From the NCBI GenBank assembly GCA_963807065.1, contig CAWDZQ010000002.1, positions 177,260 to 241,259 of the forward strand: 64,000 nt of DNA. Direction: 5' to 3'. A program made the translations under genes and the position numbers. This document shows, in pieces, positions 859 through 48,498 of the stretch. Each line of letters opens with the position of its first letter. Within the stretch, counting starts at the first letter, position 1. The notes under the pieces are model-generated. The model saw only the letters and a list, made by a program, of their open reading frames with translations. It did no database searches and was not told the DNA's origin. The DNA is from an uncultured Chloroflexia bacterium (lineage in GTDB: Bacteria > Chloroflexota > Anaerolineae > Anaerolineales > E44-bin32).

Positions 859-917
859 TCTGGATTCATTACGAATCCGCGCCGGGCCCGCGCCGCCAAG
901 CCGGGATTCGTCCATTT

Positions 918-933
918 TGTGAAATTTCCCACA
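918..933. promoter_or_regulatory. CRP/FNR-type site TGTGA-N6-CCACA (one mismatch)
   Basis: The sequence is attttGTGAaatttcCCACAaatt, with flanks matching the extended ATTTGTGA..TCACAAAT pattern of the other copies. It lies between the stop of the 1035..1475 gene and the start of the HDIG gene. Confidence 0.45.
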
Positions 934-1034
934 AATTCTGGCCATCCGTTGCAGGATCGACGTGCAGACAGCAAGCATCGCCAGGCGGATCCACGGCCGC
1001 CTGGCATGGGCAACCACCGCCTGAAGAGGCGGAG

Positions 1035-5330: not shown

Positions 5331-5365
5331 TTGGATACCTCCTGCAATCTACCGAATTGCCGATT

Positions 5366-5381
5366 TGTGAAACCTTGCACA
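5366..5381. promoter_or_regulatory. CRP/FNR-type site TGTGA-N6-GCACA (one mismatch)
   Basis: The sequence is cgatTTGTGAaaccttGCACAAtc, in the divergent htrA / response-regulator intergenic region, 36-51 nt upstream of the htrA ATG. Confidence 0.45.
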
Positions 5382-5557
5382 ATCTGTCCGGCCGATGCCG
5401 GCGGTCCTGTGCGAACTTTCCGAAGTCTACTCACCCAACATGACAGTCGGATGACAAAGCCCGGCGAGTTTTCTACCGGTGCGCTCGGCCGGCGTTCATC
5501 TGGCTGTCATCTGACTGTGTTGGAGTATTCTTAAGCAAGGAACAGTCCCGGAAACAC

Positions 5558-11057: not shown

Positions 11058-11231
11058 GAGAACACAATAGCCCAGCGAAATTAAGCATCCGTGAAGGCGT
11101 CGTTAAGCCTCCATAAACGCCAGCCCGCCCTTGGCCGGAGATCCAGATGACAATGCGCATGCCCAATCGGGGGATATGGATCTTCGCAAGCCTCGGGTGC
11201 GTTCGCCACCAAGACTGACTAACCGACGATT

Positions 11232-11247
11232 TGTGATTTTCTTCACT
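11232..11247. promoter_or_regulatory. CRP/FNR-type site TGTGA-N6-TCACT (one mismatch) upstream of bfr
   Basis: The sequence is cgatTTGTGAttttctTCACTagc, centred about 33 bp upstream of a TATAGA -10-like hexamer (11272-11277) and 64 nt upstream of the bfr ATG. Confidence 0.5.
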
Positions 11248-11303
11248 AGCCACCGGCCGGCAGATGCGTCAGTATAGAGGCGAGATGAAAGGAGCATCAA
11301 CCA

Positions 11304-11774
11304 ATGAAGAGCGAACCCAAACTGATCGACACCCTCAATGAACTGTTGGCCGATGAACTCACCGCCATCAGCCAGTATATGGTGCACTCGGAAATGTGCG
11401 CCCACTGGGGCTTTGGGGGTCTGCATGAGGCAATTGAGTCCCAGGCCAAGGATGAGATGCACCACGCCGAATGGCTGATTGAGCGCATCCTGTTCTTGGA
11501 GGGCATGCCGGTGGTCACCAACTTGAGGCCGATGAAGATCGGCAGCACGGTGGAACAGATCATCGCCGGTGACCAGGAAGCCGAGATGGGTGCCGTCAAG
11601 GCGTATAACGCCGGCATTGCCCTGGCCAGCGGCCAAGCGGATGAAGCCACGGCGGACTTGCTGACGGAAATCTTGAAGATGGAAGAGGGCCACGTCGACT
11701 GGGCCGAGAAGCAGCGAACTCTGATGGCCCAAATGGGCACGGAGAACTACCTGGCGACCCAACTCGAAGAATAG
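11304..11774 (+). CDS. bfr: bacterioferritin
   Basis: The 156-aa ORF has ferroxidase-centre ligands in the Bfr pattern (LNELLADELTAISQYMVH, AKDEMHHAEWLIERILFLEG, LKMEEGHVDW). AAAGGAG lies upstream of the ATG. Confidence 0.92.
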   Translation: MKSEPKLIDTLNELLADELTAISQYMVHSEMCAHWGFGGLHEAIESQAKDEMHHAEWLIERILFLEGMPVVTNLRPMKIGSTVEQIIAGDQEAEMGAVKAYNAGIALASGQADEATADLLTEILKMEEGHVDWAEKQRTLMAQMGTENYLATQLEE

Positions 11775-18453: not shown

Positions 18454-18717
18454 CCTCAGCTCACCATCAACAAAAAACCGGCAGCCCTATGCTGCCAGTC
18501 ATAGAGATTGTCAGACAGGGATCCCATGTCCTCTGTCTCGAGCCGCACTATACCACGCCCACGTGGCTGAGTCTATGGCCGGCGACGCCCCCCGACGGTG
18601 GAGCCATCTTGGCAGCCGCGTTCCCCAGCTCATTGTGCGAGGGAAATCGCAATAGATCCGGACCTCACCCGCCCGAGCCGAGAAGCCCCGCTCCAATCCA
18701 ACATTAATTTGTCCGGT

Positions 18718-18747
18718 TTGACATGCCAACTCGGCGGGCGATACAAT
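18718..18747 (+). promoter_or_regulatory. near-consensus sigma-70-type promoter (TTGACA-18-TACAAT)
   Basis: TTGACA is at 18718-18723 and TACAAT at 18742-18747. It points toward the xylF-like operon, 280 nt upstream of its ATG. Confidence 0.45.
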
Positions 18748-18851
18748 TTTGGGGTGCCGATGCTTTCCCGAAGGCCGACTCCAAGCCCGACCGGGGGCCG
18801 TCCGAAGGGCAGCACGGTTCTCCGATCCCCGTTCCCAATGGGGGTGATCGG

Positions 18852-18879
18852 CCAATTTGTGAAGATCTTCACAAATTGG
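18852..18879. promoter_or_regulatory. perfect 28-bp palindrome containing a CRP/FNR-type TGTGA-N6-TCACA core
   Basis: The palindrome is CCAATTTGTGAAGA|TCTTCACAAATTGG, with its core at 18858-18873. It lies about 105 nt downstream of the predicted promoter and 150 nt upstream of the xylF-like ATG. Confidence 0.6.
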
Positions 18880-19028
18880 ATGCTTTCAAAGACCCGGCTC
18901 GGGATGGCTGATCCCAATTCGACCCGGACAGGAAAGGAGGTTCGACCACCACAAAACGAAGATGATCAGACTTTGTTGAGGTAGTTCAACCCTTAGACGG
19001 TAGATCAGTGTATAGGTAGGAGTTGAAG

Positions 19029-22375: not shown

Positions 22376-22447
22376 CCGGCAGCCCGTGACGGCTCTCACC
22401 ACCTCAAACTGACCTGATCAGATCCCCTGACCCCCCTTCGTCCCGAT

Positions 22448-22463
22448 TGTGAGAGTTTTCACA
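22448..22463. promoter_or_regulatory. perfect CRP/FNR-type site TGTGA-N6-TCACA at convergent gene ends
   Basis: The sequence is cgatTGTGAgagtttTCACAAac. Its right half-site contains the TGA stop (22459-22461, minus strand) of the DMT transporter gene. It lies 73 nt after the permease stop. Confidence 0.45.
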
Positions 22464-23421
22464 AACCGTTTGGCCGCGCCCCAAGACGCGGCCAAGCGAG
22501 CAGGCTCACGCCCCCCACCACAAGCACCGCGCCCGCCAGCTGCAGGCCATCCAATCTTTCTCCCAACAGCAGATAGGACAACACGGCAGCGAAGGCGACC
22601 TCCGAGTTGGAAGTAATGGAGGCCACGCTGGCCTGTGGGCGGTGCAACCCGGCCGTGTACAGGCCGAACCCGGCCACCGTCGTGAACAGGACCAATCCAG
22701 CGAAGGAAGCCAGCACCCGAGGCTGGAACGACCAGGGCATCGCCGCCTGGCCAACTTGGAACGGCAGGAGTGCCAGGGCGGCGAATCCGAAGACATACAC
22801 CAGAATGGTCCACGAACTGTAGGAACCGGCGAGCTTCTTTCCGATGAGAGAGAAGGATCCGTACAACAGCGCCGAGAGCAGCGCCACGCCAAACCCAGTC
22901 AAGGTGATGCTCATCCCCTGAAGCCGGTCCAAACGCGCAATGAGGACGACCCCAGCCAGAGCCAAAAGAATCGCCAACAACTTGAGCCGCGTCAGGGGCT
23001 CCTTCCACACAACCCAGGCGGCCAGGGTCACGAAGAGGGGGGCGAGGCATTGGATCACGGTTGAAATCGACACGCCGTTGAGCAGGATGGACGTGTTCCA
23101 CAAGACGTGGAATGCGCCTATGCCGATGGCGCCCATGCCGGCCAGCCAGGGGAGGTCTTGCCGCCGGACCCGGAGAAGCACAGGCCGAAACACGGCCAGC
23201 CCGATGAGCAGCGCACAGAAGGTGAACAAGTCACGCCAAAACGCCAGCCCCACGGCCCGCATTCGGCTTCCATCCGAGATGTAGCGGATGAAGATGCCGG
23301 AGGTCGACCAACAAGCCGTCGCCAGCAGGACCATCGCGAATCCAGGGGAATTGGAGGTCGTGACGCCGCCCTCATCGACCCGGCTCCAGGCCCGGATGGC
23401 TGCGGCCGGGTCAGCCTTCAT
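22459..23421 (-). CDS. DMT-superfamily (EamA-like) transporter
   Basis: The 320-aa ORF has 10 predicted TM helices with a duplicated EamA-like architecture. Its start overlaps the upstream stop by 1 nt (TAATG). Confidence 0.85.
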   Translation of the reverse strand: MKADPAAAIRAWSRVDEGGVTTSNSPGFAMVLLATACWSTSGIFIRYISDGSRMRAVGLAFWRDLFTFCALLIGLAVFRPVLLRVRRQDLPWLAGMGAIGIGAFHVLWNTSILLNGVSISTVIQCLAPLFVTLAAWVVWKEPLTRLKLLAILLALAGVVLIARLDRLQGMSITLTGFGVALLSALLYGSFSLIGKKLAGSYSSWTILVYVFGFAALALLPFQVGQAAMPWSFQPRVLASFAGLVLFTTVAGFGLYTAGLHRPQASVASITSNSEVAFAAVLSYLLLGERLDGLQLAGAVLVVGGVSLLAWPRLGARPNGL

Positions 23422-27746: not shown

Positions 27747-29240
27747 CTAGCTTGAACCGAGCCCGTGCAATGAGGGTTTGAGCGAGGGGTAGAGTTGGCG
27801 GTATATCGGATAAAGCGCATCGTAGTCGGCAGCAGCGGAGCCCGGTGTCGTCCGCCCAGTAATATGAACGACCTGCAGGCAAACGCTGCGCACATTGGGA
27901 AAAACGCCAGTGCCCGTGGCCGCCAAGAGGGCCGCACCGAATGCCGCACCCTCTCTAGAGTTGACCGTAACAAGCTCTGCTTGGAGAACATCGGCGAGGA
28001 TCTGTCGCCATAATGGGCTCTTTGCGCCGCCCCCTGTGACACGAACTTGGGTGATTTCTCCCAATCCAGCAGCTTCCATGAGTTCGAAGCTTTCTCTTAA
28101 GCCAAATGCAACGCCTTCCAATACCGATCGTGTCAAATGGGGCAAGGCATGCCGAACCGTCAAGCCGACGAACGCTCCGCGGGCCAGAGGATCCGAATGC
28201 GGAGTACGTTCACCGGTCAAGTAAGGCAGAAACAGCAGGCCATCGCTTCCTGGGGGTATCTTGCTCACATCCTCCAGCAGGGAATCGAAATCAACACCGG
28301 GAGCAAATGTGTCGCGATGCCAACGCAGGCTCCCACCTGCGGAGAGCATGACGCCCATCAGATGCCACTTTCCGGGGACGGCGTGACAGAACGCGTGCAG
28401 GCGCCCCGCCGGTTCGATGGTGGGTTGATCCGTGGTGGCGAAAATCACCCCAGATGTCCCCAAGCTGAGTGAGACGATCCCTTCTTCAACCGCGCCCGTG
28501 CCGACCGCAGCAGCGGCCTGGTCCCCTGCTCCCCCCACGATCGGCGTCCCCTCTTCCAATCCCGTAGCTTTGGCGGCTTCGGCACTCAACTTGCCTGCCA
28601 CTCTTGGGCCTTCATATGTCGTGGGCAGGTACCGACGATCAATCTCAAGAGCGTCAAGTACCTCGAGGGACCAATCACGGCCGCGTATGTCAAAGAGCAG
28701 CGTGCCAGACCCCCCGGCGCGGTCCATGGCGAATTCACCGCTAAGCCGATAGCGGACGTAGTCCTTGGGCAGCAAGATGTGGGCGACCTTCCGATAGAGA
28801 TCGGGTTCTTCCTGCTGAACCCACAGGATTTTGGGCGCGGTGAAACCCGTGAGAGCGTCGTTGCCGGTGACCTGGATCAAATGATCCTTGCCAAGCCGGG
28901 CGCGGATATCATCGCATTGTTTTCCGGTACGTTGATCATTCCAGAGCAAGGCCGGTCGGATCATTTTCCCGTCTTTGTCCAGGAGAACCAACCCGTGCAT
29001 CTGACCGGTGAGCCCAATGCCTTCCACGTCGCTGGCCGGCACCCCTGAGGATTGCATGACGGCGCGGATGCTGGTCACCGCAGCATCCCACCACAGTTGG
29101 GGATCTTGCTCGCTCCACAAGGGACGCGGAGTGTCAAAGGTGTATTCCGACGAAGCGACGGCCACGACGCGGCCCTTGTCATCAATCAAGAGAGCCTTCG
29201 TCGCCGTGGTCGAGGCATCGATGCCAAGGCAGTAGCTCAT
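27747..29240 (-). CDS. xylB: xylulokinase (FGGY family)
   Basis: The 497-aa ORF has LGIDASTTATKALL, GAGDQAAAAVG and TGGGAKSPLWRQILADV motifs. Confidence 0.88.
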   Translation of the reverse strand: MSYCLGIDASTTATKALLIDDKGRVVAVASSEYTFDTPRPLWSEQDPQLWWDAAVTSIRAVMQSSGVPASDVEGIGLTGQMHGLVLLDKDGKMIRPALLWNDQRTGKQCDDIRARLGKDHLIQVTGNDALTGFTAPKILWVQQEEPDLYRKVAHILLPKDYVRYRLSGEFAMDRAGGSGTLLFDIRGRDWSLEVLDALEIDRRYLPTTYEGPRVAGKLSAEAAKATGLEEGTPIVGGAGDQAAAAVGTGAVEEGIVSLSLGTSGVIFATTDQPTIEPAGRLHAFCHAVPGKWHLMGVMLSAGGSLRWHRDTFAPGVDFDSLLEDVSKIPPGSDGLLFLPYLTGERTPHSDPLARGAFVGLTVRHALPHLTRSVLEGVAFGLRESFELMEAAGLGEITQVRVTGGGAKSPLWRQILADVLQAELVTVNSREGAAFGAALLAATGTGVFPNVRSVCLQVVHITGRTTPGSAAADYDALYPIYRQLYPSLKPSLHGLGSS

Positions 29241-29246
29241 CTTGAC

Positions 29247-30134
29247 CTATCCCGCTTTGATGACTGAGAGGACTTGGACGAGGTCATCGGACCACTCAAT
29301 TCCTTCGTGCAGGTCCCAGACCTCGATATGCTCGATACTGCCTCCCGGCAACAGCGATGTGATTGGTGCGAGCGTCTCCAGCTCCAAGAACCGCGGGTCA
29401 CAATAGCACTCGCTGGAGCTTCCGCGGTCAAAATACTCGGCGCCCTGAAAATAGCTTGCACGTTTGACAAAGAGTGACCCATTGAGCCAGTACGCCAGCC
29501 ACCCCTCAGGGTTCGGGAAACCGATCTTGAGCTTGCCCCCCTTCATTTTGGCTCGAACAAGGACAATCTCATTTCCCCAGCTGATGTAATCCGAGTTGAT
29601 GTCTGTATAGGACCAGAGTGTGATGGTGCGGTTGGGCTGGATGGGACTCCCCCAAATGCCGTTTGTACACTGGGGCAGGATGGCCACGCCCCCCGGCCTC
29701 AGCTGGGTGATGGCCCACGGTGACAGGGTTTGTTCCGTATCTCCCCTGTTCGTCAATGTGTGTCTGACCTCAACGGAAGCGCGATGGCTGGCCAAGCGAA
29801 CTTCGAGCACCTTTTCAAGCATCGTCCTCGGATCCGCTGGTTGGGTGAGGCGGATGCCATCACCAAGAGACTTCACATCAATGGGGGAGTCATCTGGTAA
29901 ATAGGTTATCGGGGGATTCTCGGGGGCATGCCATAGGCGATGGCCGCCGTAGAAGTGGAAGGGAGCCCCTCCGGGATGTTCCAATATGGCCCCCGGGAGC
30001 ACGGCAAGAATATTATCACCCCTGCTTGACTTCAACGACAGGATGCGCGGGCCAACCGAAATGGTCGCCAATATTGAAAGGTGATCACTGGCGATCTCAG
30101 CACATTCAATTCCCTGAAATTCAATCGTCTGCAT
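29247..30134 (-). CDS. galactose-mutarotase-fold / aldose-epimerase-like protein, uncharacterised
   Basis: The start at 30134 is MQTIEF. Has a GGHRLWHAPE motif and a beta-sandwich-like sequence. It sits between xylA and xylB. Confidence 0.6.
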   Translation of the reverse strand: MQTIEFQGIECAEIASDHLSILATISVGPRILSLKSSRGDNILAVLPGAILEHPGGAPFHFYGGHRLWHAPENPPITYLPDDSPIDVKSLGDGIRLTQPADPRTMLEKVLEVRLASHRASVEVRHTLTNRGDTEQTLSPWAITQLRPGGVAILPQCTNGIWGSPIQPNRTITLWSYTDINSDYISWGNEIVLVRAKMKGGKLKIGFPNPEGWLAYWLNGSLFVKRASYFQGAEYFDRGSSSECYCDPRFLELETLAPITSLLPGGSIEHIEVWDLHEGIEWSDDLVQVLSVIKAG

Positions 30135-30162
30135 ATCTCGCCGCGTCCGATTGAGCGGACTT

Positions 30163-31332
30163 CTAGCGTACGCCCATGATGAGTTCAACCACCAATTGAT
30201 CAAGGCGCTCATATTTCAATCCACGCTGTCCAAGTTTCTCCCGATCGAAGGTCAAGGCTTTTAGACTTGATGCTTTCTCGGGTGAATACTTGCCCTTGAA
30301 CGGATCCATCTCGCCATCGTCGGCGGTTATCTCTGCCAGGAGGGCCTGGATTTCGGGGTCATGGCCGAATTGGGCCGCCTTTTGCTTCAGGATCAGGTAG
30401 GTGCGCATGCAGCCCCGGGCGAAGTCCTTTACACCCTCGTAATCCTCGGTACGGTAGGCATGTGCATCAAAGTGACGGCTGCCGGAATAGCCAGAGTCCT
30501 CCAGCAGTTTGACAAGGAAGAAAGCGCTCTTGAGATTGACCGCACCGAAACGAAAATCCTGGTCAAAGCGGCCAAAGGCCTGGTCGTTCAGATCGATATG
30601 GAAAAGCTTTTCCGTTTCAAGGGCTTGGGCCACCGCGTGTACGAAGTTAAGTCCGGCCATGTGTTCGTGAGCGACTTCCGGGTTTACTCCGACCATTTCA
30701 GGGTGATCAAGGGTTTCGATGAAGGCCAGCATGTGCCCTGTCGTCGCGTTGTACATGTCACCGCGCGGCTCATTGGGTTTTGCCTCGAGGGCAAACTTCA
30801 GCTGGTAGTCTCTATCCAGGACGTATTCACAGAGGAAGTTCATCGCCTCACGTGTGCGCTTGATAGCCACAACAGGATCTTTGCCCGCATCGGTTTCCGT
30901 CCCTTCGCGCCCCCCCCAAAAGACATAGACCTTTGCACCCAATTCCACACCGAGGTCGATCGCATGCATCGTTTTCTGGAGCGCGTACGCCCGCACACGC
31001 GGGTTGTTTGCAGTGAAGGCACCATCCTTAAAGACCGGATCCCCGAAGAGGTTGGTGGTTGCCATAGGGACGCACAGGCCGGTTGCCTGCAGAGCCCGCT
31101 GAAACTCCGCCACAATTCTATGGCGATCAGAAGGACTGGCATCGATCGGGACCAGGTCATTGTCGTGGAGATTGACACCATAGGCCCCGACGTCGGCAAG
31201 CAGGTGTACAAGCTCAACTGGAGATAGCGAAGAGCGCACAGGTCCGCCAAATGGGTCGCGTCCGATGTTCCCGACGGTCCACAAGCCGAATGTGAACTTA
31301 TGCTCGGGCTTGGGCTGAAAAGGATCAGGCAT
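30163..31332 (-). CDS. xylA: xylose isomerase (short, actinobacterial-type class I)
   Basis: The start at 31332 has AGGAGA upstream. Has [16 protein letters not shown]-like, WGGREG and PKPNEPRGD-like motifs. The product is 389 aa. Confidence 0.92.
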
Positions 31333-31391
31333 CAAATTTCTCCTATACGCCGGTCGGGGCGTGGCAGCATGTTCATGTCCTACTTCTCCGC

Positions 31392-33714
31392 CTAGGTCCC
31401 GACTTCTACCGGGCATTCGAACAGCCGCTTGTTGATGACTTCGGCCTGCCGGCCCACGACTTCGAATGAGCCTTGTAAGCGAATGTCCTCGGACGAGCTG
31501 CCCACCATAACGATCATCCGACCGGGCTCAAGCACCAGTTCCAGGTCCTGGTTGTAGAATGCCAGCAGGTTTACGGGCAAACTGAATGTGACCTTCTTTC
31601 GTTCGCCGGATTGGAGTTCGATTCGCGTGTAGCCGACGAGTTGCTTCACCGGCCGCGGTGAACTCGCGAACATGTCCCGAGCATAGAGCTGGACAACCTC
31701 CTCACCGGGGAGCGATCCTGTGTTGGTCAATTCAACCGCCACGGCAACGCATTCACCACAGGACACTTGAGGCTTGCCCACCGATAGATTGCTGTATTCG
31801 AATGTCGTATAACTCAGGCCGTGGCCGAAGGGATAGAGCGGGGCGGTCTTCTCTGAGACATAATCGCCGTACCAGTGGGATTTCATGGCCGAGGGTTGGT
31901 GATTGTAGAAAATCGGCAGCTGTCCGACATGGCGCGGGAATGTTACCGGGATCTTGCCCCCAGGATTGACGTCACCAAAAAGGACGTCGGCCACTGCGCC
32001 CCCCCCTTCTTCACCGGGAATCCAGGCTTCGAGAATGGCGTCGGCCATCTCATCAAGCCAAGGAATGGCATACGGGCGCCCGTTGATCAAGACAGCCGCC
32101 ACCGGTTTGCCAGTGGCCAGCACCGCCCTTGCCAGATCTTCCTGCACGCCGGGCAGACGAAGGTCAGCGCTATCGCGAGTTTCCCCAGTAGTGCATTCAG
32201 GCATCAGCCCGGATCGATCGCCAAGAACGAGAATCACCGCGTCAGCTCGATCGGCGGCCGCAAGTGCGCTATCAAATCCACCCTTGTCTTCATCCAGATT
32301 GTCGCAACCTTTGGCATACAGCACTTTCGTCTTCGGCGAGACGGCCGCTTTGATGTTTTCAAGCACCGTGGTCACCTGTATTTCATGTCGAGCAATTGCA
32401 TTGGCATCGACTTCTCACAAATGAAGAATTAGGCGGAGACTGGTAAATCATCAGCTCTTTGGTGGCCTCATAGGAATAATCGCCCAGCAGACCACGGGCA
32501 TGATCTGCGTTGGGGCCAAGAACAGCCACAGTGCCGATGTCCTTCTCGAGTGGCAGGAGCCCATTGTTCTTGAGGAGAACGATGCTCTTACGGGCGATCT
32601 CTCGCGCCAAGCTACGCTGTGCGCCGGTCTCATATACCTCGAGCACACGCCCTTCATCCACGAAAGGATTAACGAACAGACCAAGGTCAAGTTTCTTCTG
32701 CAGGTGTCGGCGCACGGCCGTATCAACGGTTCCGATATCAAGGTCGCCAGCATCCAGCGCGGCCATGAGCGGCTCGGCATAGCAAACCGCTGTCGGCAAC
32801 TCCACGTCGATACCTGCGTCGAGCGCAAGACATGCCGCCGTGGACTTATCCACAGCCAGGTTGTGAAAGTTGTGGATCATAAGAACGGCTTCGTAGTCCG
32901 AGACCACCAGGCCGTCGAATCCGAGTTGGTCTCGTAGGAGTTCGGTCAAAATGCGGCGCGACGCAGCGACCAACTCGCCATCCACTTCGGGATAGGCGTT
33001 CATGATGCTGGCCAAGCCAGCCTCCCCTATGGCGGCTTGGAATGGGGCGAGATACACCTCGAATAACTCATGCCATCCCACATGGACGGGCCCGCAGTTG
33101 AGACCGCCCTGGGATAGGCCGTGTCCGATGAAATGTTTCCCAGTCGCCATCACGCCATCTGTCAGGCTGTCTCCCTGCAACCCGCGGACGTAGGCCACGC
33201 CAAACTGACTGACCAACATTGGGTCTTCGCCAAAGGTCTCTTCTATGCGTCCCCACCGTGGGTCGCGGGCGACATCCAGCACCGGTGCCAGCGCCTGGCG
33301 CGCCCCGATGGCCAGCATCTGTTGGCGGATGGCGCTTGTCATTTGTTGGGCCAATTCGGGCTGAAATGTGGCGGCCAAGCCGAGCATCTGCGGGTAGCAT
33401 GTTCCTCCAAGCACCACGGTCCCGCAACAACATTCCTCGTGAAGAATTGCCGGTATGCCTAAACGTGTGCGTTCCACAAGGAATCTCTGGATCTGATTGC
33501 CGGCTATGGCTGCCGACAGCGGATCTAGAGTTGAAGCGCCGGCGACCCGAGTGATCTGGCCCATGCCGAGGCTGAGTTTCGACTGGATCTTTTCCGGATC
33601 CAGCTTCGCATCCTTTTGCAGCTCATACATCCAGCAGGAGCCCAGTTGAGCCAATTTCTCATCCAAGGTCATCTGTGTTATGAGTTTCTCGATGGAGGGC
33701 AAGATGGATGTCAT
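31392..33714 (-). pseudogene. GH3 beta-glucosidase (BglX-like), split by one frameshift
   Basis: ORF 32383..33714 is the N-terminal (beta/alpha)8 domain (GRIEETFGEDP, KHFIGHG, VVSDY). ORF 31392..32375 is the C-terminal alpha/beta plus FnIII-like part (ILVLGD, INGRPY, EAWIPGEEGG). The frames can only be joined within 32385-32414. Confidence 0.85.
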
Positions 33715-33832
33715 GCAGCCTCTCTGTCCGGACCTTCATGCCTATTTTGGGCATCGAAGTTTCTGGAACGAACCAGGTCCCCTATGAGCCAGACTTTGAA
33801 CCAATGATCATCGAAATACGGTAGAGATCGCA

Positions 33833-35201
<1,369 letters not shown>

Positions 35202-37668
35202 CTACCGACCCAGCCAGCCCTGGATCTGGACTTTGTTCACCCCATTGACGGGCATTGGGATGACGTTTCCACTGACCGGCGTTCCATCCACAAGCAATTG
35301 GATGGCCTTGCCCGGCCCTTCCCTTTTCACGTTAATGTCATATTGGACACCCCGAAAGTGGCGCACTGCTTCAAATCCTTTCCAGGCCGCGGGAATGACC
35401 GGCGCTACCTGCAGCCCATCGTAGGTCGGACGGATCCCCAGAATCCACTGCGTGATGGCAACATAATTCCAGGCGGCCGTGCCCGTCAGCCATGAATTCT
35501 TGGCCTCGCCGTGCGTGGGCGCGTCCTTGCCGGCAATCATCTGGGCATAGACATAGGGTTCGCACTTGTGAAGATGGCTCAGATCCTCACGGGCGGAGGG
35601 ATTGATCCTTAAGTAGTAGTCGTGAGCCCTGTCCCCGCGCCCGATCATGGCCTCGGCGATCATGATCCAGGGATTGGTATGACAGAAAATGCCAGCGTTC
35701 TCTTTGAAACCTGGGGGATAGGACGAGATCTCACCCAAATGCAAATGATACCGGCTGAAGGCTGGGCGCAGCAGGACAATTCCGTGGGGTGTCGCCAGAT
35801 GCTCGCCAACTGCATCTAATGCTTGGAGGGCGCGTCCGTCTTCTACGCCCAATCCGGCCATGACACAGATGCCCTGCGGCTCGATGAAGATTTGGCCTTC
35901 ATCGTTCTCCTCCGAGCCCAGGACCCCGCCGAAATTGTCATAGGCGCGACGGAACCAACCACCATCCCAACCGGCTGCCCAGATAGCTTCCTCCATCGCT
36001 TGTGCAGACTTCGCATGCTCGTCGGCTCGATGCGTATCCCCCATGCGGGCAGCGATATCCCTCATCTCCTTGGCCGCCAGCACGAACAATCCGGCGATGA
36101 AGACGCTTTCCGCGATCTTGCCTTCTTCATTCGTCGTCGTTTGAAATGACTGCCCCGGCTCATTTGAGAAACAATTCAGATTTAGGCAATCGTTCCAATC
36201 TGCACGGCCAATGAGCGGCAAGCCATGAGGGCCAAGTCGATCGAGTGTGAATTGAATTGATCGCCCGAGGTGGCCGATTAGTGGTTCTTCCGTCCCGTTC
36301 TGGTTCTCATACGGGACCGGATGATGGAGAATGCTCCAATCGCCGGTCTCCTTCAGATAGGCCGCAACAGACAGCACAAGCCAAAGGGGATCATCGTTAA
36401 AACCGTCGCCTATGTCGTCGTTGCCTCGCTTGGTTAGCGGCTGGTACTGATGGTAGGCGCCTCCACTCAGCAGTTGCGTCGCCGCCAAATCCAGTATCCG
36501 GTCCCGGGCTTTCTCAGGGCAAAAGGGCATGAGCCCAATTAGGTCTTGGTTCGAATCCCTGAAGCCGATACCACGCCCAATTCCTGATTTAAAGTACGTG
36601 GCGGAGCGCGATAGTCTAAAGTTGACCATCACCTGATAGGCATTCCAGATATTGACCATGCGGTTTGTGTGCGTGTCCGGTGTCGTAACCTGAAACCTGT
36701 TCAACAACCTTCCCCAATGTAAGCGCAAAGCCATGAACGCCTTTTCAACCTCCTCCGGTTGAAGATACCGCTTGATAATCGGCGCTACGCCGCGCTGTAT
36801 TGATGAGCTGTGACTCCGGGGGATCGAATTTGTCGTCAGATGGGTTTTCGAAATAGCCCAGAACGAAAATGATCTTTTTGCGCGTTCCGGGTGGCAATTG
36901 GATGCTCGCCTGCAGGGCTCCAATGGGTTGCCAGCCGTGCGCGATCGAACCAGCCAACTGGCCGGCCTCGACAGCAGAAGGCGAATCCCATCCCCGATAG
37001 GGTCCCAGGAAGGCCTCGCGCTGCGTATCAAATCCGACAACAGATTCCGAACCGGCCAGATAAGCGAAATGATTTCGCCGTTCCCGATATTCAGACTTGT
37101 GATATATGACTCCGTCCACGACCTCCACTTCGCCAATGGAAAGATTGCGCTGATAGTTGGTGGAATCGTCCAACGCGTCCCACAGATTGAACTCTACGGC
37201 CGCGAAGACCGAAAGTTGGACAGCCTCCTCCCTGAGGTTGCACAGCGTCAGTTCCCAGATCTCAAGGTTTTCATCCAGAGGGACAAAGTATCTGGTGGTG
37301 GACTCGATTCCGGATAGGCTCGAACGGATGGTGGTGTAGCCCAGCCCATGCCGGCATTCGTAGGCATCCAGCGGAGTTCGCACCGGTCGCCATGACGGGG
37401 ACCAGAACTGAACCGCAGCGGAATTTGCAGATGGGCTGTCGACGTGGAGGTACACATGGCGCCCCCCTGTATCCAAGGGAGCCCCGTTGTACCGGTATCG
37501 GGTTAGCCGGCGCAGCCGGGCGTCTTTGTAGAACGAATAGCCGCCCGCCGTGTTGGAGATGAGACCTGTGAAGTCGTGGTCGCCAAGGAAGTTAATCCAC
37601 GGCAAGGGCGTATCGGGGCGATCAATGACGTACTCCCGTCGCTCATCGTCAAAGTGACCATAACGCAT
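35202..37668 (-). pseudogene. GH94 cellobiose/chitobiose-type phosphorylase, split by one frameshift
   Basis: The N-terminal part runs from M at 37668 (MRYGHFDDERREYVIDRPDTPLPWINFLG) in ORF 36745..37842. The remainder is in ORF 35202..37136 ([14 protein letters not shown]). The join lies around 36780-36800. The total of about 822 aa fits the family. Confidence 0.85.
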
Positions 37669-37690
37669 AGTGCCTCGATGTCTGGCTTCT

Positions 37691-38537
37691 CTATTCTTTA
37701 ATGGCGCCCAGGGCAATGCCGCTGACAATGTAACGCGAGAAGATAGCGTAGATGATGATGATCGGGACAACCGTAATGGCAAGTCCCAAGTAGATCGCAC
37801 CATACTCTGTACGATACACGTCACCACGCATGGTTTGCACAAGCATCGGCAGGGTGTACTTCTTTATAGATGAAATCAGGATGAACGGGGTGAAAAAGTT
37901 GTTCCATGATGCGACGAACGCAAAAATACCCATGGTGGCCGCACCTGGAACCGCAAGAGGCATGATAATCCTGTGAAAGATCCCCAGTTCACCGGCGCCA
38001 TCGATTTTGGCAGCATCGATCAGATCTTGGACCACCATTGACTTCGAAGTACTGCTTGCCAAAGAACACCGCCGAGGCATTGGCAATCAGGGGCAAGATA
38101 AGCGAAGCATAATTGTCTGTCAATCCCAGGGTGGACATGAATTGATAGAAACCCACGATAGAGAGCTGCATGGGGATCATGACCAGCACGATGATGAAGT
38201 TGGAGAAGAGCTTTTTCCCCTTGAAGTCGTAGACAACCAGGCCATAGGCGGTCATCATCGAGAAATAGACTGTGACCAGCGTCGAGGAGACCGCCAGGTA
38301 TAAGCTGTTGGCGAAGCCTCTCGGCATGTCCAAACCTCTGCCGATCAACAGTCCGTAGTTCTCGATAACATGCGTGCTCGGCAGCAGGCTAATCCCCTGT
38401 TGAATCTCCGTTGTTGAACGGGTTGCGTTCACGATCAGCAACCAGATTGGCAAGATGGTGATGACCAACAGGAGAATCAGGAACGTGTAGACTAAAATGC
38501 GGAGGACACCCGTGCCAAATCTGTATTGGCTGATCAT
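37691..38537 (-). pseudogene. CUT1-family sugar ABC permease (MalG-like), split by one frameshift
   Basis: ORF 37989..38537 is the N-terminal TM helices. ORF 37691..38086 carries the EAA-loop region (LIDAAKIDGAGELGIFHRIIMP). The join is near 38030-38045. Confidence 0.85.
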
Positions 38538-39492
38538 GATAGCAACCCCTCACGATTCCTTCCCTTGAGCGGCCACAACTTCTTCCGGTTTCCGTCACCC
38601 ACATCCCATCGTGTAGGAAGTAGAAGATACCCAGCGCGCATACGCTGGTCATGATGAACACCAGCACGCCGACCGAGGAGGCCGCTCCGATGTGACCCTG
38701 GCTGCTAGCGAATTTCATGTACATCAGAATGTTGTTGGTTTGAATCGAGCTCAACGGGGAACCTCTGCCATCGGTCAAAAGGAACGGGATGTCAAACATC
38801 TGCATGCCGCCCACCAACGATGTCACAAAGACAAATATGAGGATAGGCTTCAATAACGGCAAGGTGATATGCCTGAACATTTGCCAGTCGCTTCCGCCAT
38901 CGACCATGGCGGCTTCATATAAGTGAACTGGTATGGACGTCATGCCTGCCATGAGAATGATTGCCGTCTGGCCGAACCACATCCACCATTGGATGAATAT
39001 CACCAAACCGCGCGTGATCCAGACACTCTCCAGAAACCGCATGGCTTCAGTCAAGAATCCCAGCTTCACCATGAGCTGGTTAGCTGGGCCATAGTAATCA
39101 AACAGTGCGTGAAACAATGCCGCTACGGCCGCAGGCACCAGCAGATTCGGCAAGAAGAACAACGCACGCCATGTCCCGACGGCCTTGATCTTCAACCGGA
39201 CACTGGTGAACAGAACCGACAACAGCATGGCGATGCCGATCTGAGGGATGAAATTCAGCAACCAGATCAACCAGGTGTTCCCCACCGCCCTCACGAAGAC
39301 GATATCGGCGAACAGCCGTTTGAAGTTTGCCAAGCCGGTAAATTTGCTCGTACTCGACATCAAGGTTGTGTTGGTGAAGCTAAGAGCCAGGGTGTTGTAA
39401 ACCGGGTAAAGGCCAAAGATGAGAAAGCCGATGACGAATGGCGCAAGAAACATATAACCGTAGTAATTGCTCCAAGACTTCGCTCTATTCAT
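38534..39492 (-). CDS. CUT1-family sugar ABC permease (MalF/LacF-like) with a probable frame problem at the extreme C-terminus
   Basis: Has the EAA loop (LYEAAMVDGGSDWQMFRHITLP). As drawn, ORF 38389..39525 runs 149 nt into the next gene. A shift near 38600-38620 gives a tail ending in TGA that overlaps the next ATG (ATGA at 38534-38537). The start is uncertain (39492, 39516 or 39525). Confidence 0.75.
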
Positions 39493-39611
39493 CTCGCCCT
39501 CGAGTTTCTCCGTCATCGAAAACAAGTCGCCCGATCAGCCAGTTTGAACGATCGGGGTGGGTCAGTGTATTCTTGGGAATACACTGGCCCACCCTCCCTT
39601 TCAGATTGCGG

Positions 39612-41045
39612 CTACTGTACAGGCGGGGCAGGAATGGTCAGATCGGGAAATTCGTTCCGAACTGCGTCCAGCCACGTAGACCACATCTCTGCTTCGGTCG
39701 TCGTTCCGCTAAGATACGCGGCCAGCGGGTCGTTTAGGGCACGCTGAATGGCGTCGTCAGAGCCGGTCAGCAACGCGCCATTTACACTCGGTGCGGCCTG
39801 GGCGAAGGCTCCATATGAGTTCTCCCCACCGAGGAAGTCGGACAGTGTGGAATTGTCGAAGCTGCTCGTAATCTTGTCGACTACCACCTGGCTGGAGACG
39901 AAATCTCCAGCCGCCTGAGCCTGGTCGTCGGGCGTGGTCGGATCGATGGCCTTCAGGTATTCATTGGTGTAAACGCCCGTTGCCCAATTGGTCAGGTTCT
40001 GTTCGTCGAGGGCGACGAACCTGACGAATTCCGTCGCCAGTTCACTATTCGGGCTACCCTTCAGGACGCCGACCCATGTGCCACCCCACTGGTAGGAGAG
40101 CGGACCGTTGACCATGGCCCAGTCACCGCCGGTGCCCGCCCCGCCAGACGCCGGGACGGAGTTGGGGCTCAAGACATACGGAAGGCCCCAGGTCGGGAGG
40201 AAGTAGCTGAAGACCTTCTTGGGGGTGCCATTGGCATCCACCAGCGTGTCATTCATACCGGAAAACCAGCCTTCAGTCCACTGCGTCGCTCCAGATTCGT
40301 AGCCCATGTCGCGCATCAGTTTGGCGAAATGGACGTACTCCACGATCTTAGGATCAATCACCAGTGTATCGTCGACTACCCAGGGCTGAGCGCGATTGGA
40401 GAGGAAGGGTGTAAACAACTCGGCACCAGTTCCAACCATGAAGTAATCGCCAGTGCCGCAGGCCTTAATCTTGGCGGCGGTGTCAAGGAACTTGGTCATG
40501 TCAGCGACCATGGCCTGCACCGCAACCGGATCATCGGTGCCGAGGCATTCTTTCGCGATGCTCCGGCGATAGAAGAAGGCTCCCGGAGTGGCCTGGTAAG
40601 AATAGGCCCTTGTCTCGCCGTTGAAGGTACCGACCTGGACCACGTTTTGGTAGGTCTTGAGGGTTTTGGTCAGAGGCAGAAGCGAATTCAAGTTGGCCAA
40701 CAGGTCGGACTCAACCCACTCTTTCACGAAAGCGGCTTCAAGCGCAACCACATCCGGAGAATTGGCGGTTCCAGCGGCCGCTTTCACTTTGGTTTGATAT
40801 TCACCGTTGGTCATAGGGATCAAGGTGTAGTTGACGGTCACCCCAGGGTGGACACCTTCAAAAGCAATCGCCATCGTCCTCAGTTCGGCGGTGAACGACC
40901 ACACGTTCAGGGTGCCAGTTAGTTCGGCAGGAGTGGGTGTATCCGCAGCCGCCGGTGCTTGGGTTGCTGGGGCACCACCGCAGGCGACCAAGAGCATACC
41001 TGTGACCATCATGAAGCTAAGGGCGGATACTGCAGACTTGCGCAT
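39612..41045 (-). CDS. CUT1-family extracellular solute-binding lipoprotein (oligosaccharide-type)
   Basis: The 477-aa ORF has a lipoprotein signal (MLLVACGG) and family-1 SBP-like sequence. It is the first gene of the transporter operon. Confidence 0.88.
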   Translation of the reverse strand: MRKSAVSALSFMMVTGMLLVACGGAPATQAPAAADTPTPAELTGTLNVWSFTAELRTMAIAFEGVHPGVTVNYTLIPMTNGEYQTKVKAAAGTANSPDVVALEAAFVKEWVESDLLANLNSLLPLTKTLKTYQNVVQVGTFNGETRAYSYQATPGAFFYRRSIAKECLGTDDPVAVQAMVADMTKFLDTAAKIKACGTGDYFMVGTGAELFTPFLSNRAQPWVVDDTLVIDPKIVEYVHFAKLMRDMGYESGATQWTEGWFSGMNDTLVDANGTPKKVFSYFLPTWGLPYVLSPNSVPASGGAGTGGDWAMVNGPLSYQWGGTWVGVLKGSPNSELATEFVRFVALDEQNLTNWATGVYTNEYLKAIDPTTPDDQAQAAGDFVSSQVVVDKITSSFDNSTLSDFLGGENSYGAFAQAAPSVNGALLTGSDDAIQRALNDPLAAYLSGTTTEAEMWSTWLDAVRNEFPDLTIPAPPVQ

Positions 41046-41226
41046 GTGTCTTCTCCTTCGTATGCTTTAGGCGGAGAGAAATCTCCGTTCGACTGTGCAG
41101 GTCTTCCTTCGTCCGCTCATGGCAGAAGTGAAGACCTGTGCATTTCTTAGCAGGGCCTCAGAATCACCTCCCTTTCTTTAGGTGCTCTTTGCATTGCACA
41201 AAAGTTTCGAGCCAGCAACGCCCGAG

Positions 41227-42303
41227 CTAAGTTGTTCTTGTCAAGGCACGACAGGAACTTCTTCTCACCAAGCTAGTGGGCATCTTATAGACTTGTTCAT
41301 CCAGGGTTTCATGATCGACGAGCTCGATGAGCATCTGCACTGCAACGTAGCCCATCTCCTCCAGGGATTGATCGACAGTGGTCAGGCCCAAGTACTTGGC
41401 TTCGGCAATGTTGTCAAAACCCACCACCGACAAGTCCTCGGGGATGCGCACGCGCAACTCTTCTGCCGCCTGAAAAACCCCGATCGCGGATTGATCATTC
41501 GCCGCAAAAATCGCCGTAGGTGGAGTCTCCAAGCCAAGCAAATCGAGCGTACACTTGTATCCTTTCTCAGCCGAAAAGTCCCCTAGCGCCACATACTCCT
41601 CGGGCACCCCAATCCCCGCTCTGGCAAGTGTGTCCCGATAGCCCTCCAGGCGACGCTCACCACTTCCAATTTCAGGTCGGCCGGTAATGAACGCAATTCG
41701 TCGATGGCCCAGCCCAATCAGGTACTCCATCGCATCAACGGCGCCCTGGTAGTTTGTGGCCTGAACGTAAGGGTAATTTGGGTCATCGCCATGAGGATCC
41801 ACGGAGACGATCGGGGCGTCCGAAACAAAGTTGGCCGCCGCGGACGCCACAATAATCACACCGTCAGTCATCGAGTTGCTAAGAATGGAAACATAGTGCT
41901 GTTCATGGGATGCGGCGCCGATTTTTCTGATATCCCCGGTTGTGTACACCAAAAGATCGAACGTCAATTCCACGATCGCACGGTTGATACCCTTCATAAT
42001 CTCAATCGAATATGGGAAGCCGATGTCTGGAACGACAAGGCCGATAAGATTCTTTTTTCGACTGCGCATACTCCGCGCAGCCAAGCTCGAGGCATAGCCG
42101 AGCTTGTCGATGACCTTTTGGACCCGCACCGAGGTCTCGGCGGAGACATCATCTTTGTTGTTTAGAACACGGGAAACGGTCGAGACTGAAACGCCGGCTC
42201 TCTCAGCGACATCGAAGATGGTGATCGAACGCTTCTTGGTGTTCAATGCTGGCAGCCCCGATAATGTTACCGGGAACGTTACCGGATTGATCCATTCTTG
42301 CAT
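41227..42303 (-). CDS. LacI-family transcriptional regulator
   Basis: Has an HTH (ITIFDVAERAGVSVSTVSRVLNN) and a periplasmic-binding-fold effector domain. The true start may be the TTG at 42246. Confidence 0.88.
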   Translation of the reverse strand: MQEWINPVTFPVTLSGLPALNTKKRSITIFDVAERAGVSVSTVSRVLNNKDDVSAETSVRVQKVIDKLGYASSLAARSMRSRKKNLIGLVVPDIGFPYSIEIMKGINRAIVELTFDLLVYTTGDIRKIGAASHEQHYVSILSNSMTDGVIIVASAAANFVSDAPIVSVDPHGDDPNYPYVQATNYQGAVDAMEYLIGLGHRRIAFITGRPEIGSGERRLEGYRDTLARAGIGVPEEYVALGDFSAEKGYKCTLDLLGLETPPTAIFAANDQSAIGVFQAAEELRVRIPEDLSVVGFDNIAEAKYLGLTTVDQSLEEMGYVAVQMLIELVDHETLDEQVYKMPTSLVRRSSCRALTRTT

Positions 42304-43222
42304 ATTCTGTGGGCAGAGTCAAGTAGGTTGTTTCCCCCGGGTTGTGGTGTCACGCGCCGAAAGCCGGGGCCGAGAAAGGCCGACCATCGATGACGTCGCT
42401 CAAGATCGCCGACACGGGCCGCCACCGCTCCACCCTTCGTTCGACCCAGAAATCACAGCACCTAAATGCGCGGCCGTGGATGAGCGGTATCTCGCCTTGA
42501 AGTCGCGCTCGACCTTGTTGCATGCGAGCCGCCTGGAAGTCACTGGTTGTGACTGTTCGGACCCGAAGCACGCTGGGGAGGCAGTTGGACAAGAGAACGC
42601 CCACCAGCCAAGCTGGCTGACCCATACGCCGCCGAGGCTGGGTAGCGGTGGGCGGCGCCGATATGGCGCACTGAGAAGGCGAGGTTGGCCGAAGTCATCG
42701 CCCTGATCAGAGCCGCGTTGCGTTACCTGCCCGACTTCACCTACCGACAGCTTCAAACGCTCCAGGTTCCATCGCCCCCTTCGTGCGTTTCGCCGACCCC
42801 GACTTGACCATATTCGTTGATGTCGTCGGCCAGCCCGTCGGTTTGGTTTCCCAGCATCCCCAATCTGGAAAGAAGACCTGATCGGGGTTGATGGCTTGCG
42901 CCATGTTGCGGACTGCGCCCGCCTGTGGTGGGCAATCCGCCGGCGCCCGGGCTGCCTGGCGAGCAAGAGGCTGCTCGTGTTGCCCTAGTTCTGGGACACC
43001 GGGGTGGCGCGGCTACTATCTGACAAAGTGGCCCGCTGGGCCAGGGGGAAAGGCTGCCTTTGGGCGCAACTGACTGAGGCCTCGACTGACAACCCCCATA
43101 CACCCGGCCTTGCGGATCGCCTGTGCACGAAGCTTCACAAGCGCCATTGAGTCTATCCCAAGCCGCTCACGCCCCCTCGCTTCAGCCAACCCCAGCGGTC
43201 GAGGGGGGCCTCCGTGCTCGTT

Positions 43223-43238
43223 TGTGACGCGCTTCACA
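43223..43238. promoter_or_regulatory. perfect CRP/FNR-type site TGTGA-N6-TCACA in an ORF-poor region
   Basis: The sequence is cgTTTGTGAcgcgctTCACAAAtcg. It lies 58 nt downstream of the MFS gene stop (43296) and about 920 nt upstream of the LacI ATG. Confidence 0.45.
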
Positions 43239-43295
43239 AATCGGCCGGCATGGCCCACTGGTCCCCCCTTGCGGTTGTCCCCTATCAATGGGTGG

Positions 43296-44714
43296 TCAGG
43301 CTTGATCCAACCTGAGCGGCCTGTCGTTTCCCCGGCTGAAGGAAACTCCAGCCGCCAGCACTGCCACCCCGCTGGCGAAGACCATGCTGACGTCAAAAGC
43401 GTGCACCAGGATCGCCCGGTCGGCGCCGCCGCTCGGGCCTAACAGGGTATTGAAGATGGCGCCGGTCAGCCCGATCCCCAGCGCCATGCCGACGTTGCGC
43501 GCCAGCGCCAGCACGCCGGCGGCAATCCCTTGTTTGGTTGGGGGCGCGGCACCCATCAGCGCGCTGTTGTTGGGGGCGACGAACAGCCCCGTGCCTAGGC
43601 CACAAATTGCCAGGCCGGCCACGGTCAGCCCGAGCGGCGAGGTTTGCCGCATGAGGGATAGGACACACAATCCCGCGGCCAGGAGCGACATGCCCAGCGT
43701 GGTCGGGATGCGTGACCCGACGCGATCAGAGAGGCTGCCGCTGAGGGGCGCCGTTACGGCCATCACCAGGGGTTGAGCCGCGAGAATCAGCCCCGCCTGG
43801 GCCGCCGAAAGCCCCCGCGCCAGAATGAGGAAGAACGGCAGGAGGAAAGTGACGCTGTAAAGGCAGATGTAGTTGAGGATCGGGGTGACCGTTGAAACGG
43901 CAAAAACGCGGTGCTTGAATAGTCCGAGGTCCAACATCGGCGCCTGGACGCGCCTCTCGAGCCCGATGAAAAGTCCAATGAGAGCCAGGGCCCCTGCCAG
44001 GGTCCCCAAGATGACCGGCGACAGCCACCCCAGATTATGACCCTGGTCAAGCGCAAAGAGCAGTCCCGTCAACCCCACGGCAAAAGTCGCCGCCCCCGCC
44101 CAGTCAAACCGCTCGTGCTCGCCGGCTGGCCGGTCAACCGGTATCACCGCCAGGCTGAGCGACATGGCCAGGAGGCCGATCGGAACATTGATAAAGAAGA
44201 CACTGTGCCAGCCAAAGGTGTCGGCCAACCACCCGCCGAAAGACGGACCCGTCGTCAGGCCCAGATAGGTCATCGTGCCCTGGACGCCAAGCGCCTGGCC
44301 GCGCTGCCGGGCGGGGAAGTTCTTGGTGAGGATGGCCGGGGAGATGGCGAAGAGCATCGCTGCGCCGATAGCCTGCAGCCCGCGGGCGGAGATTAGAAGG
44401 GCCGGCGAAGGGGCAAGGCCGCACAGGGCCGAACCGATGATGAAGACCCCGAAGCCGGCGAGGTAGATGATCTTGTTGCCGCGCATATCCCCCAGGCGGC
44501 CGACGGTCAACAGGAGCGCGCTCACCACAAGAAGGTACGTGGTCACTACCCACTCCACCGTGGCCACATCCGTCTTGAAGGTGGTGGTCACCACGGGCAG
44601 GATCGTGTTCACCACGCTCCCGTCCAGCGCTGACATGTAGGTACCGATGCCGATGGCCACCAGCACCAGCCACTTGCGTTCGATGGAGAATCTGCCTCTC
44701 GCGTCAATGCCCAT
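43296..44714 (-). CDS. MFS transporter, 14-TM drug:H+ antiporter (DHA2/EmrB-like) type
   Basis: Has 14 predicted TM helices and MFS motif A-like GRLGDMRGNK. I preferred the start at 44714 (MGIDARG). Confidence 0.88.
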   Translation of the reverse strand: MGIDARGRFSIERKWLVLVAIGIGTYMSALDGSVVNTILPVVTTTFKTDVATVEWVVTTYLLVVSALLLTVGRLGDMRGNKIIYLAGFGVFIIGSALCGLAPSPALLISARGLQAIGAAMLFAISPAILTKNFPARQRGQALGVQGTMTYLGLTTGPSFGGWLADTFGWHSVFFINVPIGLLAMSLSLAVIPVDRPAGEHERFDWAGAATFAVGLTGLLFALDQGHNLGWLSPVILGTLAGALALIGLFIGLERRVQAPMLDLGLFKHRVFAVSTVTPILNYICLYSVTFLLPFFLILARGLSAAQAGLILAAQPLVMAVTAPLSGSLSDRVGSRIPTTLGMSLLAAGLCVLSLMRQTSPLGLTVAGLAICGLGTGLFVAPNNSALMGAAPPTKQGIAAGVLALARNVGMALGIGLTGAIFNTLLGPSGGADRAILVHAFDVSMVFASGVAVLAAGVSFSRGNDRPLRLDQA

Positions 44715-44958
44715 GAATGGGATCCTTGGCCTCCGACCATAGACTGCCCATTGGGTAGGGAACACAAAGGCGGCCCCCGAGGCTGTCAGGCGGCCGCGAA
44801 CCACGTAGGGCAACTTCGTGGGGGAAATCGAGGCTTGCGCCTGGGGTCACCCTCTTGGTTGTCGCCAACTCATTGGCCGCAGAGGAGTGTCCGCTCGGTT
44901 GGCGTCCATCAGCTGCGGCGGGTCGCCGGTCCGAATCCAAACCTTCCAATCAGGCAGC

Positions 44959-47772: not shown

Positions 47773-47787
47773 CCGAACACTGTTCGG
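47773..47787. promoter_or_regulatory. TetR-type operator CCGAACA-C-TGTTCGG abutting a TATAAT box
   Basis: A perfect 15-bp palindrome immediately downstream of TATAAT (47767-47772) and upstream of tetR. Confidence 0.6.
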
Positions 47788-47810
47788 TGAAGGTGGGAAG
47801 AGGAATTCTC

Positions 47811-48419: not shown

Positions 48420-48460
48420 AGGTCGTCTAGGACAGATCGGCCACATTTTTTTTGCTGCCG

Positions 48461-48475: not shown

Positions 48476-48498
48476 GTCGGAAGGAGGAGGGTAAAGGC

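Follow-up and report, generated by a model that had tools for sequence, protein, structure and literature searches.

The window, by which we mean the whole stretch of DNA analysed (64 000 nt, with a G+C content of 60%), belongs to an uncultured Anaerolineales (Chloroflexota) genome and encodes proteins that are identical or near-identical to those of the MAG GCA_964509245.1 and of sediment metagenomes. The named relatives are entered as 'Anaerolineales bacterium'. The left-hand part of the window carries an HD-domain gene, htrA, a ferritin/bacterioferritin-like gene (bfr), and a xylose-type ABC transporter operon that is divergent from a DEAD-box helicase gene across the intergenic region 18454–19028. 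From 28000 to 42000 there is a sugar-utilisation island with a G+C content of 53–58%, compared with ~61% elsewhere. It contains genes for an FGGY kinase, a xylose-isomerase-like protein, GH3, GH1 and GH94 proteins, an ABC transporter and a LacI-family regulator. Further to the right are an MFS transporter gene and, at 47787–50139, TetR-family and amine-oxidase genes located between UPF0047/YjbQ and arsR-arsC-ACR3. The HD (54–825, with three frames within ~50 bp), GH3 (31392–33714), GH1 (33833–35198) and GH94 (35202–37842) genes are split by frameshifts, which suggests indel errors of a long-read assembly, or pseudogenes.

Six copies of an inverted repeat are found in this DNA, based upon the 18-mer TTGTGAA-N4-TTCACAA (TTGTGAANNNNTTCACAA). 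They are itemized here together with two promoters; each site is scored by its matches to the 14 specified bases of the 18-mer, and no strand is assigned to the sites.

917..934, no strand: site TTGTGAAATTTCCCACAA, 12/14; its centre is 100 bp 5′ of the GTG of the HD-domain gene (825, minus strand)
5365..5382, no strand: site TTGTGAAACCTTGCACAA, 13/14; 34 nt 5′ of the htrA ATG (5330, minus strand)
11231..11248, no strand: site TTGTGATTTTCTTCACTA, 12/14; 55 nt 5′ of the ATG of the ferritin/bacterioferritin-like gene (11304–11774, plus strand)
18575–18547, minus strand: putative sigma-70-type promoter TAGACT-17-TATAGT, conserved; points to the DEAD-box helicase gene
18718..18747, plus strand: putative sigma-70-type promoter TTGACA-18-TACAAT, agreeing at 11/12 consensus positions; the transcription start is predicted
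18857..18874, no strand: site TTGTGAAGATCTTCACAA, 14/14 to the Rex-type consensus; core of the 28-bp palindrome 18852–18879
22447..22464, no strand: site TTGTGAGAGTTTTCACAA, 13/14; 72 nt past the stop of the ABC permease gene (22375)
43222..43239, no strand: site TTGTGACGCGCTTCACAA, 13/14; 56 nt past the stop of the MFS transporter gene (43296–44813, minus strand)

At the centre of each site is the core TGTGA-N6-TCACA. Perfect copies of the core begin at 18858, 22448, 43223 and 57679 in the 64-kb window, against 0.05 expected from dinucleotide shuffles, and none of 100 shuffles of the window reached four. Allowing one mismatch raises the number in the window to eight (1.72 expected), adding 918, 5366, 11232 and 35184. 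The initial annotation had listed all of these except 35184, with coordinates that proved correct throughout on recount, and its description of 18852–18879 as a perfect 28-bp palindrome is accurate. It had also pointed to flanks shared beyond the core. Aligning the copies with their flanks bears this out and defines the longer repeated unit, the 18-mer. Within two mismatches the 18-mer is present six times in the window (917, 5365, 11231, 18857, 22447 and 43222, each with 12–14 of the 14 specified bases) against 0.07 expected, so that the 18-mer is far more strongly enriched than the 10-base core. The earlier judgement that the copies are not due to chance is thus upheld against shuffled controls, both for the perfect cores and for the 18-mer. 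So is the intergenic bias that was to be looked for: all six 18-mer copies are located outside gene calls and, with 13% of the window non-coding, this would occur by chance with a probability of ~5 × 10−6. Half-sites on their own are no more frequent than expected, and the sugar-utilisation island contains no site within two mismatches.

Two of the core copies are not part of this set. That at 57679 is a perfect core and had been counted with the other three, but it matches the 18-mer at only 11/14 bases, is without the flanks and is located inside a conserved 490-aa ORF, whose orthologues read ATCGTCACTGCCATCACA at that position. It was rejected as an operator and is regarded as a codon-level coincidence, being within a gene, without flanks and unconserved. 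The copy at 35184 (10/14, at the start of the GH1 gene) is chance-like. A restriction-type motif, GAA-N4-TTC, was also considered and set aside; by itself it occurs 20 times against 14.7 expected, and is not enriched.

The site at 18857 starts ~171–172 bp (centre ~164 bp) 5′ of the ATG at 19029, where the gene for the xylose-type ABC substrate-binding protein begins. In three relatives (L083, L084 and L086) the orthologous leader site is equally far from the ATG. The half-sites are identical and the spacers differ; the site reads TGTGAAGATCTTCACA in the window, TGTGAAGTTTCTCACA in L083 and TGTGAATTCTCTCACA in L086. The promoter at 18718–18747 is a fully conserved block in the alignment with the same three relatives, and most likely drives the ABC operon. 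Counting from its predicted start, the site would be at ~+110 inside a leader of ~275 nt, which we infer to be the position of a repressor or a roadblock. The leader contains further conserved blocks, GGAAAGGAGGTTCG (~18931–18944) and TAGTTCAACC..GACGGTA.

The same operon has a site at its other end. The site at 22447 overlaps the convergent EamA gene by 6 nt at its stop codon, and the site 3′ of the permease gene is kept in the relatives (14/14 in L083/L084 and 13/14 in L086) despite divergent surrounding DNA. The ABC operon is thus framed by a pair of sites, one in the leader and one at the 3′ end. In L083 (13396–15750) and L086 (10524–12876) a hydantoinase gene is interposed between the permease and EamA genes, where the window (22376–22458) has none; the site stays with the 3′ end of the permease gene although the gene that follows differs. 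An intrinsic terminator, GAGCGCCC-loop-GGGCGCTC with a T-run, is located ~130 nt 3′ of the site on the operon strand in L083 (13600–13690) and L086 (10730–10815), so that the site there comes after the stop codon and before the terminator. Conserved blocks lie in the stretch from the site to the terminator; this stretch may represent a small RNA or a 3′ untranslated region with structure. In 22 other Chloroflexota genomes the DNA upstream of distant orthologues of the binding-protein gene has no site, so the leader site is specific to the clade.

The most strongly conserved site is that of the ferritin-like gene. Amid divergent flanks, a 22-nt block, AATTTGTGATTTTCTTCACTAG (11228–11249), has the same sequence in the window and in four different relatives (contigs L083 and L093, being one and the same, are counted once). 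The identity extends to the spacer and both 'mismatches', and at all other sites the spacer drifts; a second, overlapping constraint may therefore act upon the block. Downstream of the site there is no convincing −35 element.

At the HD-domain gene the orthologous sites match at 14/14 in L089, L092 and L093 and at 13/14 in L094, again with different spacers. In the relatives the gene for nicotinate phosphoribosyltransferase (pncB) is 3′ of the HD gene on the same strand; the equivalent position here would be just outside the start of the window. In L176 the HD gene is present without a following nicotinate phosphoribosyltransferase gene, and also without the upstream site. The site is 42–79 nt 5′ of a conserved −10-like block (TCGTATAGAAT), a distance that varies among the relatives and would place it at −62 to −100, with no helical phase kept.

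The site at 5365 is also 176 nt 5′ of a divergent response-regulator/histidine-kinase operon (an OmpR-type two-component system). This copy, reported previously as the core at 5366, is present in the window, yet its conservation is patchy: L089, L093 and L094 have a degenerate version, and a 13/14 copy is found 30 bp 5′ of htrA in the more distant L176. On this comparison it is the weakest of the six. Between 5423 and 5534 (minus strand) direct repeats TGTCATCCGACTGTCAT (5440–5456) and GATGACAGCCAGATGA (within 5495–5513) are conserved in all the relatives, and better so than the site. They probably serve as binding boxes of the OmpR-type response regulator encoded alongside.

The site at 43222 is at the edge of ~1 kb without a credible ORF (42304–43295), between the MFS and LacI-family genes. 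In L101–L104 it is again 3′ of the orthologous MFS gene, and there it lies ~105 bp 5′ of flavodoxin-like and Zn-ADH-like genes. L096 (6700–7120) is identical to the window through the MFS gene and the site, and then diverges to the left of ~43100, which looks like a rearrangement boundary.

The relatives compared above are congener contigs, with proteins 79–92% identical, that were obtained from protein searches and a metagenome scan. In them the sites appear as islands of identity at fixed positions, with half-sites kept while the spacers drift. The phylogenetic footprinting proposed in the initial annotation thus finds the sites at the same places in congeners, patchily so in the case of htrA. 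Relatives hold five more orthologous groups of sites that include a 14/14 copy. Further sites are found upstream of the arsR-arsC-ACR3 operon, upstream of uncharacterised genes and between convergent genes, and several of the conserved sites are at operon 3′ ends or between convergent genes. L104 (3882–4109) and L173 (17933–19070) are without the TetR-family and amine-oxidase genes at this place, and have a 13–14/14 site 5′ of arsR that is missing from the window.

The orthologous sites were grouped as G1–G12, and the statistics of half-sites and stem pairs were taken from 11 of these groups. Position 1 of the half-site is T in 22/22 cases (with some selection bias at this position), and TT/AA flanks are present in all conserved sites. 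Position 7, directly after TGTGA, is A in 16/22 (73%, ~1 bit, a value that selection may inflate). Position 8, which played no part in selecting the sites, is a purine in 20/22. In the clade there are ~12 orthologous groups in ~100 kb, i.e. about one site per 8–10 kb; since the sampled DNA of the clade is all linked to the window, a figure for the whole genome is an extrapolation. Elsewhere (~1.9 Mb) the same 18-mer search stays at chance level, with a single site in the 1.35 Mb sampled from other genomes and none in ~528 kb of other metagenome loci or in L177/L178. In the DNA sampled, the sites are present in relatives with a 73% identical HtrA and absent at 64%.

The palindrome family is real and conserved, and belongs to a known type of element. 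Its six non-coding copies are most likely operators of one dimeric, sequence-specific DNA-binding protein, a reading drawn from the pattern of substitution. The half-sites are kept, the spacers drift, and the deviations within the stems are uncompensated, all of which argue for a dimeric protein bound to DNA and not for a hairpin. Departures from the consensus affect 11 stem pairs across the 11 groups; none of these pairs is compensated to a Watson–Crick pair (three are G-T), and one stem sequence is common to all copies with no covariation. It is very improbable that the palindrome acts by structure, whether as an RNA or DNA hairpin (a terminator or a stabiliser of mRNA 3′ ends) or as a REP/MITE-like repeat. 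That several copies are in transcribed leaders or directly after stop codons would suit such a role, as would the folding of the 28-bp palindrome (−15.1 kcal/mol, z = −4.4). The four other copies that were folded reach only −3.7 to −10.6 kcal/mol, and three of these four are indistinguishable from shuffles. The copy at 918 is marginally better than its shuffles (z = −2.6, 1/200 shuffles), and the weakest hairpin of all (−3.7 kcal/mol) is that of bfr, the most conserved site. No T-run follows the stems of the window sites and none is called as a terminator; a hairpin or intrinsic terminator was rejected on the lack of compensatory changes and of a U-tract, and on weak folding in all but the 28-bp palindrome. 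A REP/MITE-like repeat was rejected because the flanks are unrelated between copies and the orthologous copies hold their positions in relatives. The lack of over-represented single half-sites likewise counts against a structural role, as does an Rfam scan of the window that matched no RNA family.

The leading candidate for the bound protein, at about even odds, is a Rex-type redox repressor, serving as a global regulator in this clade of uncultured Anaerolineales. The 18-mer of the window is the published Rex consensus, which the site at 18857 matches at 14/14. The Rex operator is given as TTGTGAANNNNTTCACAA, a palindrome of 18–20 bp, in a passage of PMC6391272 that cites Ravcheev 2012; the Staphylococcus aureus consensus is TTGTGAAW4TTCACAA (PMC2883068), and related forms occur in Streptomyces, Bacillus and Streptococcus pneumoniae (PMC6018154). 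Some of the linked genes resemble Rex targets, i.e. the HD gene with pncB in the relatives, and the flavodoxin-like and Zn-ADH-like genes, also in relatives; pncB and a Zn-dependent ADH are experimentally shown targets of Rex in S. pneumoniae (PMC6018154). Rex orthologues are reported in Chloroflexi, according to a passage of PMC6682613 citing Ravcheev 2012. Rex is favoured by the enrichment of the 18-mer, its non-coding location, the footprints, the A at position 7 and purine at position 8, and the linked genes of Rex type. Further points in its favour are L176, in which the HD-upstream site and a following nicotinate phosphoribosyltransferase gene are both missing, and the repressor-type geometry predicted for the site at ~+110. 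Set against this, the site of the HD gene at 42–79 nt 5′ of the −10-like block, with variable spacing, would be odd for a pure repressor. Some conserved sites are between convergent genes, and the motif is not diagnostic. A density of about one site per 8–10 kb is far above that of published Rex regulons and more like that of a global CRP-type or nucleoid-associated factor. Sites also adjoin htrA, bfr and the sugar ABC and ars operons, none of which is a classic Rex target. Queried by phmmer with Rex of B. subtilis and of Thermus, the six-frame ORFs of the window and ~2.4 Mb of fetched loci gave no rex gene; neither rex nor crp/fnr is present in ~350 kb of clade loci or in ~1.9 Mb of other Chloroflexota loci.

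The initial annotation had assigned the sites to the CRP/FNR family, as operators of a global regulator (cNMP-binding plus HTH_Crp domains). Such a protein would activate or repress according to position; we regard this assignment as possible though doubtful. The TGTGA-N6-TCACA core has the sequence and spacing of the classic CRP core. A global CRP-type factor would be in keeping with the high density and the heterogeneous targets, among which is a xylose-type ABC operon near a sugar-utilisation island. The position 42–79 nt 5′ of the −10-like block, or that at bfr where no −35 element is recognisable, could be those of an activator. A Desulfovibrio consensus, TTGTGAnnnnnnTCACAA, that is identical to the 18-mer was first assigned to the CRP/FNR-like HcpR (PMC545781), and a later report has Rex and HcpR1 binding identical sites (PMC5701242); the motif alone is therefore insufficient to assign the family. 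The CRP/FNR assignment does not follow, however, from the sites themselves, since the extended consensus is that of the Rex operator. The E. coli-type extended consensus AATGTGA-N6-TCACATT is at chance level, with two copies within three mismatches in the window against 1.46 expected. This rules out an E. coli-like specificity only, and not the whole CRP/FNR family. The A at position 7 and purine at position 8 are informative and form a Rex signature, whereas the E. coli consensus AAATGTGATCTAGATCACATTT has T after TGTGA. The base after TGTGA is only weakly conserved in CRP sites. Moreover, the spacing from site to promoter varies among the relatives without keeping helical phase, and the site at 18857 would be ~110 nt downstream of the sole strong conserved promoter. 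An activator of the CRP/FNR family would be expected near −41.5 or −61.5 and in helical phase with its promoter; the predicted positions are ~+110 at the ABC operon and −62 to −100 at the HD gene. The earlier statement that the window contains no cognate regulator agrees with our searches. Using phmmer with E. coli CRP, GlxR and FNR no CRP/FNR homologue was detected in the six-frame ORFs, and Pfam gave no CRP/FNR or rex gene among ~70 window ORFs. Over 178 fetched loci phmmer placed CRP-like genes only in Sorangium and Dormibacterota, with none in Chloroflexota, the loci of the clade included. As the best match is a Rex box and no regulator gene was found in the Chloroflexota loci searched, a CRP/FNR label is premature. 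The suggestion of a global regulon is supported, as the sites adjoin heterogeneous genes. It is unlikely that the operators belong to some other dimeric family with the same dyad (GntR, MarR/PadR, Rrf2 or a nucleoid-associated protein peculiar to the clade). Neither Rex nor CRP typically shows such a density, about one site per 8–10 kb, or such positions at operon 3′ ends and between convergent genes, and no rex or crp/fnr gene was found in the window or in the Chloroflexota loci searched; against this, two known families match the consensus exactly. We know of no other family, GntR, MarR/PadR or Rrf2-like, that has this consensus. The LacI-family regulator encoded at 41227–42303 was considered as the binder and rejected. 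LacI-type operators have adjacent half-sites and a central CG, which the 6-nt gap between the pentamers and the variable centre contradict.

If the protein is Rex, it would comprise a winged-helix DNA-binding domain and a Rossmann NAD(H)-binding domain, and would occupy TTGTGAA-N4-TTCACAA at a low NADH/NAD+ ratio, leaving the DNA as NADH rises. A dimer at ~+110 in the ABC operon would block elongation or hold the operon off. At the ferritin-like gene, with 55 nt between site and ATG, it would bind beside or over the core promoter, and at the HD-domain gene upstream of the conserved −10-like block. In this scheme, which protein binds, in which direction it regulates and where the promoters lie are all predicted.

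A wider role can also be envisaged, in which a Rex-like or CRP-like protein has come to serve the whole genome, binding hundreds of high-affinity dyads at about one per 8–10 kb, including those in leaders and at operon 3′ ends such as the pair around the sugar ABC operon. We consider this rather unlikely. Were it so, the redox (or nucleotide) state would control elongation, read-through and convergent transcription across the chromosome, with a reach beyond a small fermentation regulon. The Anaerolineales are abundant, mostly uncultured fermenters of sediments and digesters, and their gene regulation is almost undescribed. A conserved and very abundant operator is a direct handle on a master regulator, one that would tie redox or carbon state to sugar uptake, iron storage, NAD salvage and envelope stress. 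There is also a warning for annotation. TGTGA-N6-TCACA is routinely called 'CRP', yet the same DNA is a Rex box, and for such cores the flanks and the inventory of regulators need to be checked ahead of assigning a family.

The position of the site in the ABC leader may be compared with that of the CcpA cre of the B. subtilis xyl operon, a roadblock site for catabolite control inside a leader or gene. In both an operator of a global regulator is placed ~100 nt past the start of a transcript for pentose utilisation, the start being predicted in the present case. The motif and protein family differ, and the clade sites are known from sequence alone. With the operators of CRP/FNR proteins (E. coli CRP, GlxR and HcpR1) the sites share the same 5+6+5 core and spacing and a global, heterogeneous set of neighbouring genes. 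They differ from the E. coli CRP consensus in having TT/AA flanks and not AAA/TTT, and an A that carries information stands directly after TGTGA. No CRP/FNR gene is near the window sites, and 18857 is far downstream of its promoter, judged from the predicted start. Compared with published Rex regulons the clade sites are one to two orders of magnitude denser by extrapolation, there being 63 predicted Rex sites in the whole genome of C. bescii (PMC6391272). Several are at operon 3′ ends or between convergent genes, and their sugar ABC, ars operon, htrA and ferritin-like neighbours are not classic targets. The window sites are based upon the same 18-bp inverted repeat, TTGTGAA-N4-TTCACAA, as the operators of Rex, known from Streptomyces, Bacillus, Staphylococcus, Thermus, Clostridia and Desulfovibrio, with a centre that tends to be A/T-rich or purine/pyrimidine. 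In relatives the orthologous sites are linked to NAD salvage (pncB) and to a Zn-ADH-like gene, and the host is an anaerobic fermenter of a phylum in which, as stated in a passage of PMC6682613, Rex orthologues are reported.
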